From NCBI RefSeq assembly GCF_017348835.2, contig NZ_CP071375.1: a stretch of DNA of 64,000 nucleotides, one strand, 5' to 3'. This DNA comes from Escherichia coli (GTDB lineage: Bacteria > Pseudomonadota > Gammaproteobacteria > Enterobacterales > Enterobacteriaceae). Positions 34,549 to 37,630 of the stretch are shown piece by piece. The translations under genes were made by a program, and so were the position numbers. Position 1 is the stretch's first letter; each line of letters begins with the position of its first letter. The notes below the pieces were generated by a model. That model was not told the DNA's origin. It searched no databases and worked only from the letters and a program-made list of their open reading frames with translations.

Positions 34549-35016
34549 TTATTCTTTCTCGGCAATGTACGGATCCTCATAGCCCAGAGCAAGCATAATC
34601 TCTGTTTCGAGGGCTTCCATTTCTTCTGCTTCGTCATCTTCGATGTGATCGTAACCTAACAAATGCAGACTGCCGTGCACCACCATATGCGCCCAGTGCG
34701 CCTCCAGTGGTTTGCCTTGCTCCTGAGCTTCCTTCTCAACCACCTGACGGCAGATAACCAGATCGCCCAGTAGCGACATCTCCATGCCAGGCGGCACTTC
34801 AAACGGGAAGGAGAGCACGTTGGTCGGCTTATCCTTACCGCGATAGGTCAGATTCAGACTGTGGCTTTCGGCGGTATCGACCACGCGAATAGTTACTTCC
34901 GATTCTTCCTGAAACTGCGGGATCACCGCATTCAGCCATGTTTGAAACTGGCTCTCTTCCGGCAATCCGGAGTTATCTTCACATGCCAGTTGTAAATCGA
35001 GGATCACCTGACTCAT
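34549..35016 (-). CDS. ybeY: Endoribonuclease YbeY (rRNA maturation)
   Basis: 155 aa; HxxxHxxGxxH metal motif ([11 protein letters not shown]). Confidence 0.95.
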
Positions 35017-36053
35017 TTTTGTTCCTGTTCTTCGCGCTTGCGTTCTGCTGCCAGCGCCGCTTTACGTTTTTGTTCTGCTTCTTCCCAGGCTTCATAAGCG
35101 TTAACGATACGCGCCACCACCGGGTGACGAACCACGTCTTCGCTGTGGAAGAAGTTAAAGCTGATCTCTTCGACATCGGCCAGCACTTCAATGGCATGAC
35201 GTAAGCCTGATTTAGTATTACGCGGCAGGTCGATCTGTGTGACGTCGCCGGTGATAACCGCTTTTGAGTTAAAACCGATACGGGTCAGGAACATCTTCAT
35301 CTGTTCGATGGTGGTGTTCTGGCTCTCATCGAGAATGATAAAGGCGTCATTCAGCGTACGACCACGCATATAGGCCAGCGGTGCGACTTCAATAACGTTG
35401 CGCTCAATCAGTTTCTCGACTTTCTCAAAGCCCAGCATTTCAAACAGCGCGTCGTACAGTGGGCGCAGATACGGGTCTACTTTCTGGCTTAAATCGCCAG
35501 GCAGGAAGCCCAGTTTCTCACCGGCTTCTACTGCCGGACGAGTCAGCAGAATACGGCGAATTTCCTGACGCTCCAGGGCATCAACTGCTGCAGCCACTGC
35601 CAGGTAGGTTTTACCCGTACCCGCCGGGCCAACGCCGAAGGTAATGTCATGGTCGAGAATATTGGCGATGTACTGCGCCTGGTTTGGCGTGCGCGGCTTA
35701 ATTACGCCGCGTTTGGTTTTGATATTGACCGCTTTGCCGTACTCCGGCACGCTCTCCGCGCTTTGCTCCAGTACCCGTGCTTCTTTAATCGCAAGGTGGA
35801 TCTGTTCCGGTTCGATATCCTGAATCTGACCGCGCATCGGGGCAGTATCGACATACAGGCTACGCAGAATGTCTGCCGCAGCGGTGACGCAAATCGGACG
35901 GCCGGTCAGTTTAAAGTGGTTATCGCGGCGATTGATCTCGATGCCGAGACGGCGTTCGAGCTGCTTGATGTTGTCATCAAACGGGCCGCACAGGCTCAAC
36001 AGACGCGCATTGTCTGCTGGCTCCAGGGTGATTTCGCGAGTGTCTATGTTCAA
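35013..36053 (-). CDS. ybeZ: PhoH-like ATPase YbeZ
   Basis: Walker A (GPAGTGKT). TTG start at 36053 with a strong RBS (aagagga) gives 346 aa; the ATG at 36092 (359 aa) has no good RBS. Confidence 0.88.
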
Positions 36054-36205
36054 ACCGTTCCTCTTATCTGTATGCCGCCGGAAGCTGAACATTCACCGGC
36101 CTATAAGGAAATTATTCACGCCACAGGAAAAAGGCGCAAGCATTGCGATAAAGATGGGGATAAAGAGAGAAAAAACAAGGCCCACCGGAACGGCAGGCCT
36201 GAGAA

Positions 36206-37630
36206 TTACGGCTGATAATAACCCACGCCAAGGTCGTTTTCTTTGCGGGTACGGGCAATCACCGATTCCGGTGTTTCTGCCACGCGCAGACCCATTTCAT
36301 CTTCAGTTCGCACCACTTTACCGCGCAGAGAGTTCGGGTAGACGTCGGTAATTTCTACATCGACGAATTTACCGATCATATCCGGCGTGCCTTCGAAGTT
36401 GACCACGCGGTTATTTTCCGTACGCCCGGAAAGCTCCATGATGCTCTTACGCGATGTACCTTCTACCAGAATACGCTGGGTGGTGCCGAGCATCCGACGG
36501 CTCCATGCCATCGCTTGCTGATTAATGCGCTCTTGCAGAATATACAGACGCTGCTTCTTCTCTTCTTCCGGAACATCATCAACCATATCGGCGGCTGGTG
36601 TACCCGGACGTGCAGAGAAGATAAAGCTGTAGCTCATGTCGAAATTGACGTCGGCAATCAGCTTCATCGTTTTCTCGAAGTCTTCGGTGGTTTCGCCAGG
36701 GAAGCCAACGATGAAGTCAGAACTGATCTGAATATCCGGACGCGCCGCACGCAGTTTACGGATGATCGCTTTGTACTCCAGCGCCGTATGGGTACGTCCC
36801 ATCAGGTTCAGAATACGATCGGAACCGCTCTGTACCGGCAGATGCAGGAAGCTCACCAGCTCCGGCGTGTCGCGATACACTTCGATGATATCGTCGGTGA
36901 ATTCGATCGGATGGCTGGTGGTAAAGCGAATACGATCGATCCCGTCGATCGCAGCAACCAGACGCAACAGATCGGCAAACGATCCTGTGGTGCCGTCGTA
37001 GTTTTCACCACGCCAGGCGTTCACGTTCTGACCGAGCAGGTTGACTTCACGCACGCCCTGAGCCGCAAGCTGGGCAATTTCAAACAGAATATCGTCGGAG
37101 GGACGGCTTACCTCTTCACCACGGGTGTAAGGCACCACGCAGTAGGTGCAATATTTATTGCAGCCTTCCATGATGGAGACAAACGCGGTCGGTCCTTCGG
37201 CGCGCGGTTCCGGTAGACGGTCAAACTTCTCGATTTCCGGGAAGCTGATATCTACAACCGGGCTGCGGTCGCCGCGCACGGAGTTGATCATCTCCGGCAG
37301 ACGGTGCAGCGTTTGCGGCCCAAAAATAATATCGACATAGTGGGCGCGCTGGCGAATGTGCTCGCCTTCTTGCGATGCCACGCAGCCACCGACGCCGATA
37401 ATCAGGTCTGGATTCTTCTCTTTTAACAGTTTCCAGCGACCCAACTGATGGAAGACTTTTTCCTGAGCCTTCTCGCGGATTGAGCAGGTGTTCAGCAGCA
37501 GCACATCCGCTTCTTCCGCCACGTCGGTCAGTTGATAGCCGTGGGTGGCATCCAGCAGATCGGCCATCTTCGATGAATCGTACTCGTTCATCTGACAGCC
37601 CCAGGTTTTAATATGGAGTTTTTTGGTCAT
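36206..37630 (-). CDS. miaB: tRNA-i6A37 methylthiotransferase MiaB
   Basis: 474 aa; radical-SAM CxxxCxxC (CNKYCTYC) plus N-terminal MTTase Cys. Confidence 0.95.

Follow-up and report, generated by a model that had tools for sequence, protein, structure and literature searches.

Translation of Escherichia coli ybeZ starts at a conserved TTG codon, 13 codons downstream of the first in-frame ATG

The ybeZ gene of Escherichia coli raises the question of where its translation begins: at the first ATG of the reading frame, or at a TTG a short distance downstream. In the window, by which we mean the entire 64,000-nucleotide stretch of E. coli DNA analyzed here, the minus strand carries miaB followed by ybeZ-ybeY-corC-lnt, as in E. 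coli RefSeq feature tables. The open reading frame extends from ATG 36092 to a stop codon ending at 35013 and encodes 359 amino acids. A TTG at 36053–36051 (minus strand) lies in the same frame, 13 codons 3' of the ATG, and from there the frame encodes 346 amino acids (1038 nt plus the stop codon). A first-pass annotation of this DNA, made from the sequence alone, favored the TTG, and its coordinates and its description of the reading frame, the TTG, and the preceding AAGAGGA are exact in the sequence. The start that it proposed is backed independently by RefSeq, by published ribosome profiling, by cross-species DNA comparison, and by the pattern of substitutions in the would-be N-terminal extension. 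We conclude, with a probability of roughly 96%, that ybeZ starts at TTG 36053, giving a 346-residue PhoH-like ATPase, and that ATG 36092 is non-initiating. The TTG start is correct and was already known.

The coding sequence as we place it (35013–36053, minus strand; 346 codons plus TGA) has the RefSeq boundaries, encodes a Pfam PhoH domain, and shows periodic conservation from 36053 onward. The product scores 329.1 bits against Pfam PhoH (PF02562; cutoff 27) and covers profile positions 2–205 of 205. It exceeds the gathering score and is thus a member of the family, and together with the length of the frame this bears out the earlier description of a 346-residue PhoH-like protein. The closest structural counterpart is PDB 3b85, the PhoH ATPase domain of a phosphate starvation-inducible protein, whose whole 208-residue chain aligns (E = 6e-80) with YbeZ residues 129–334 in 359-residue numbering, including the Walker A motif GPAGTGKT. 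The chain is, however, without the N-terminal region of ~115 residues, and it is therefore uninformative on the start of ybeZ; the solved structures cover the C-terminal PhoH domain alone and show nothing of the YbeZ N-terminus.

In the curated record of K-12 MG1655, ybeZ (b0660, PHOL_ECOLI) occupies 692338..693378, a TTG-initiated coding sequence of 1041 nt encoding 346 residues (NP_415193.2). This is the same gene, with the same start and the same coding sequence length, as in the window, and the MG1655 leader and start region are identical to those of the window save for one SNP at the equivalent of window position 36147. The same start is called in three other strains annotated by PGAP. 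PGAP places ybeZ of strain PE164 (WP_001018040.1) at 1748–2788 of the locus, position 1748 corresponding to window position 36053, and gives the same WP_001018040.1 start in two divergent E. coli strains. Strain PE164 is 100% identical to the window across a 401-nt probe, which is found at 97–100% identity in 5424 of 5426 complete E. coli genomes. The 359-residue reading is a longest-ORF artefact, a pre-2014 call that was fixed in the K-12 reference in 2014: in 2006 coordinates, GenBank U00096.3 moved ybeZ from 691561..692640 to 691561..692601 (PMC4909307, Table S3).

Initiation in bacteria led by a Shine-Dalgarno (SD) sequence calls for a start codon with 16S-complementary purines 4–9 nt upstream, and this is what is found at TTG 36053. 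The SD sequence AAGAGGA (36059–36065, minus strand) is separated from the TTG by a 5-nt spacer, which becomes 6 nt when counted from its GAGG core. When the 9-nt 16S tail ACCUCCUUA was scanned with spacing restricted to 4–9 nt, the best duplex at TTG 36053 was −6.0 kcal/mol, a value equaled by 3.1% of random window positions; under the same constraint the best duplex at ATG 36092 was −2.4 kcal/mol, equaled by 33.7% of them. The AAGAGGA had been called well placed before TTG 36053, and its 5-nt spacer and its energy, in the top 3% of window positions, agree with this. It had also been held that ATG 36092 has no convincing SD sequence, which is fair, although a badly spaced 16S complement exists: AGGccGGUGA (36102–36093) is able to pair with an extended 16S tail (UCACC...CCU), but the GGUGA pairing has a spacer of 0 nt, and at 7 nt there is just the 3-nt AGG. 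Unconstrained duplex energies computed with a 13-nt 16S tail (−8.9 kcal/mol for the ATG versus −7.5 kcal/mol for the TTG) were discarded as misleading, because the pairing that favors the ATG abuts it with no spacer.

Ribosome-profiling data on initiation sites had been named beforehand as a check, with signal upstream of 36053 as the outcome that would speak against the TTG. Such data exist in the tetracycline-inhibited ribosome profiling (TetRP) of E. coli K-12 BW25113 by Nakahigashi et al. 2016 (PMC4909307), and they put initiation at the TTG. Row 7 of Table S2 lists ybeZ (ECK0652) with a new site at a TTG 39 nt 3' of the 2006 start, with depths of 78.98, 79.30, and 45.15 in the three samples, as against 0, 0, and 0 at the 2006 ATG (PMC4909307). 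No initiation signal upstream of 36053 is seen in the TetRP data, and no second candidate initiation site is listed for the gene (PMC4909307). The TetRP site is also identical to that of the 2014 re-annotation (New_2014_diff = 0; PMC4909307). A similar case in the same study is yigE (TTG +39), in which a longest-ORF ATG likewise gives way to a downstream SD-led UUG carrying the initiating-ribosome signal (PMC4909307). Unlike TetRP corrections of the yigE type, ybeZ had already been fixed in the 2014 GenBank record (PMC4909307).

The same tables bear on the N-terminus of the protein itself. Under "N'-peptide found", Table S2 gives '1. new annotation' for ybeZ, which according to the legend means a peptide from the new site (PMC4909307). 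Despite this flag, Table S4 of the same paper, in the version available, has no ybeZ row, and we take the peptide as flagged rather than observed. The two tables disagree in more than one place, as ybeZ and caiC are flagged without a row in Table S4, and mukE, ycgL, and hrpA have rows; among four other peptide-flagged genes that we checked, three have rows (PMC4909307). The supplements of the TRAINSPOTTER N-terminomics study contain no entry for ybeZ, P0A9K3, or b0660. The gene is marked '6. nt' with regard to lacZ fusions, that is, it is not among the genes tested in this way (PMC4909307).

The footprints bear directly on the reading in which ATG 36092 is the sole true start, as in the annotation before 2014, and TTG 36053 an internal leucine codon. 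This reading has in its favor that the frame is the longest available and opens with a canonical start codon, and the exact 359-residue sequence is found on at least 1000 public contigs. The exact 359-residue and the exact 346-residue sequences are each represented on at least 1000 public contigs. Against it stands all the evidence for the TTG, in particular the complete absence of initiation reads at the ATG (PMC4909307) and the upstream in-frame stops in 39 of the 80 species compared below; unless these data are in error, they refute this reading, and we give it practically no credence.

A comparison of the ybeZ loci of 80 Enterobacterales species (L003–L082, with the start at approximately position 1001) locates the start independently of any E. 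coli annotation. The codon homologous to window position 36053 is TTG in 73 of the 80 species and is never ATG or GTG, and in all 73 the TTG is preceded by a conserved A(G/A)AGGA. Anchored on the TTG, the alignment of these 73 species carries 1.8–1.9 bits at SD positions −9 to −6 and 1.35 and 1.14 bits at −11 and −10, and 5' of −12 conservation is mostly 0–0.6 bits with no 3-nt periodicity. On the 3' side of the TTG, in the same species, 3-nt periodicity is clean: the first two positions of each codon are conserved, and the third varies freely. The conserved SD sequence itself sits within the 39-nt segment between the ATG and the TTG (36054–36092, minus strand), whose 13-codon 'extension' would read MFSFRRHTDKRNG if it were translated from ATG 36092; we regard this segment as non-translated leader.

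The extension is moreover absent or interrupted in 73 of the 80 species; in 39 of the 80, an in-frame stop interrupts the 13 codons before the TTG. An open, ATG-initiated extension is found in seven species, belonging to Escherichia (including E. albertii), some Citrobacter, and Kluyvera. In these seven, substitutions relative to E. coli are distributed ~4/2/4 over the three codon positions of the 39-nt extension, compared to ~0/0/13 in the next 39 codons. By this pattern the extension evolves like non-coding DNA even where it is open. Given the stops and the unperiodic extension upstream and the codon periodicity downstream, the evolutionary boundary between non-coding and coding sequence in the alignment is exactly TTG 36053. 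Escherichia alone cannot separate the two starts, because the leader is nearly invariant in the genus; within E. coli it showed no variation among the most divergent alleles sampled, and E. albertii likewise. Over window positions 36030–36215, the leader between miaB and ybeZ differs from that of E. albertii (L004) at 2 of ~150 positions, and the adjoining 3' end of miaB differs at many. Within the genus, the leader therefore looks, by sequence, more constrained than the adjoining coding sequence.

These observations also weigh on a dual-initiation reading, in which ribosomes mostly use the TTG but produce a minor 359-residue proteoform from ATG 36092, perhaps under heat shock only. In E. coli, ATG 36092 shares the frame of the TTG with no stop between them, lies within the transcript that we infer below, and has some complementarity to 16S rRNA; in addition, other genes are reported to have dual sites in the TetRP data (PMC4909307). 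However, TetRP gives 0/0/0 at the ATG and no second candidate for ybeZ (PMC4909307), 73 of the 80 species lack the extension or have it interrupted, codon periodicity is missing from it even where it is open, and the 16S complementarity consists of a GGUGA with a 0-nt spacer and a 3-nt AGG at 7 nt. The ATG accordingly lacks the marks of an extended proteoform, with no upstream signal in TetRP and a frame that is neither conserved nor coding-constrained, and we consider such a minor product very unlikely. Initiation at TTG 36053 remains our preferred reading.

The structure of the transcript does not discriminate between the two codons. The ybeZYX operon is reported to be sigma32-induced (PMC6943124), and a sigma32-type motif, TTGTTT-N13-CCCCATCT, lies at 36152–36178 (minus strand), where it may serve as the heat-shock promoter of ybeZ. 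A motif of the form TTG-N15-18-CCC[C/A]ATNT is found in 26 of the 80 loci, and CCCCATNT in 16 of the 80, compared to 1.8% of shuffled upstream regions. A transcript from the sigma32-type motif would start near 36145 and place ATG 36092 within a leader of ~90 nt. Immediately upstream, following the miaB stop, is an intrinsic terminator-like hairpin of miaB (36178–36200, minus strand), with a 10-bp stem containing seven GC pairs and a T-tract tail TGTTTTTTCT. The T-tract of this terminator doubles as the −35 element (cTTGttt) of the sigma32-type ybeZ motif (36152–36200 for the combined region). The same overlap of terminator and promoter occurs in Pseudescherichia (L024 and L028), with a much shorter leader and the motif at −67 to −40.

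A second candidate promoter lies closer to the gene. The leader block GTGAATAAT (36111–36119, minus strand) includes a possible sigma70 −10 element, AATAAT, with TTGCGC at 36139–36134 at a distance of 17 nt; a transcript from this putative promoter would start at about 36104. Conservation of the block, as GGCGTGAATAATTTCC, extends to 24 of the 80 loci, almost exclusively from Enterobacteriaceae, and its distance from the start varies. The block may represent a sigma70 −10 element with a weak −35 element, or else a site for a regulator. A consensus sigma70 scan of 35900–36400 found no promoter; it would have missed one at this block because the −35 element matches at 3 of 6 positions. In the accessible literature we found no mapped transcription start site for ybeZ, and in the Reg-Seq paper the gene appears in the summary table only. 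Whichever of the two promoters is used, the sigma32-type one or the putative sigma70 one, its transcript would include ATG 36092, and transcript structure therefore does not exclude this codon as a start; it is the footprints and the comparative data that do so.

As the operon is sigma32-induced (PMC6943124), we also weighed a reading in which the leader controls translation as a switch or thermosensor, a hairpin between AUGUUCA at the upstream ATG and UGAACAU over the TTG sequestering the start. In E. coli the minimum free energy fold of the leader does pair both heptamers and thereby occludes the UUG together with part of the SD sequence. Its energy of −12.9 kcal/mol is, however, unexceptional (z = −0.57), being equaled by 62 of 200 shuffled sequences. 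The pairing is moreover restricted to Escherichia (L003 and L004): Citrobacter keeps the AUGUUCA but folds otherwise, and other genera also show different predicted folds. Being no better than shuffles and not conserved, the hairpin was rejected as a regulatory element, and we judge such a switch to be highly improbable.

TTG start codons are usually regarded as weak and as readily replaced in evolution. At ybeZ, the start (36051–36053, minus strand) is TTG in all 73 species that keep it at this position, while adjacent four-fold sites are saturated, and ATG is the ybeZ start in none of the 80. The spacer bases A, G, and T at −3 to −1 are also unusually conserved, being present in 57, 59, and 69 of the 73 species, respectively. 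At the start of ybeY, by contrast, both ATG and GTG occur. This codon overlaps the ybeZ stop in the window as ATGA (35013–35016, minus strand); of the 80 species, 70 have the ATGA overlap, with an ATG start, and 3 have GTGA, with a GTG start. The arrangement would fit a coupling of YbeY translation to that of YbeZ.

The seven species without the TTG (L070, L074, L076, L078, L079, L081, and L082) comprise Xenorhabdus, Photorhabdus, Proteus, Moellerella, and an unclassified MAG. In these, the homologous codon is TCA, CCA, TCG, or GCA, and the SD sequence is lost as well. All seven instead have a conserved (A)GAGAUAAUCA-GUG or AAGGAUAAUCA-GUG located 5–6 codons (about 15–18 nt) upstream, with a spacer of 6 nt between AGAGA or AAGGA and the GTG. 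The start of ybeZ thus appears, from the alignment, to have moved to the upstream GTG in these species. Yersinia (L059 and L067) carries both arrangements in tandem, as AGAGGA-5nt-GTG and AGAGAA-5nt-TTG. The invariance of the codon could mean that the weak TTG start, or its context, is under selection, with inefficient initiation setting YbeZ output, a suggestion that we make tentatively and hold to be on the unlikely side. If true, the weak TTG could fix the level of YbeZ relative to the translationally overlapped YbeY, for example, or make the translation of ybeZ responsive to the state of the initiation factors.

Taken together, we propose the following model for the start of this gene. ybeZ stands first in the sigma32-induced operon ybeZ-ybeY-corC-lnt, and the 5' end of its mRNA is placed here by promoter motifs. 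The 30S subunit would dock on AAGAGGA, 5 nt upstream of UUG 36053, and translation from there would yield the 346-residue PhoH-like ATPase. ATG 36092 is an accidental in-frame triplet, present in Escherichia, some Citrobacter, and Kluyvera and giving no initiation, and the 39 nt between it and the TTG are part of the 5' leader of the operon.

None of this changes the biology of E. coli, as the 346-residue, TTG-initiated form has been the reference since 2014 and has ribosome-profiling support. Restating the TTG start is nevertheless of practical use, because the 359-residue form persists in automated annotations. When YbeZ is cloned, tagged at the N-terminus, or modelled from such an annotation, use of the TTG start is advisable; an N-terminal tag placed at ATG 36092 would force the translation of 13 leader-encoded residues that are absent from native YbeZ.
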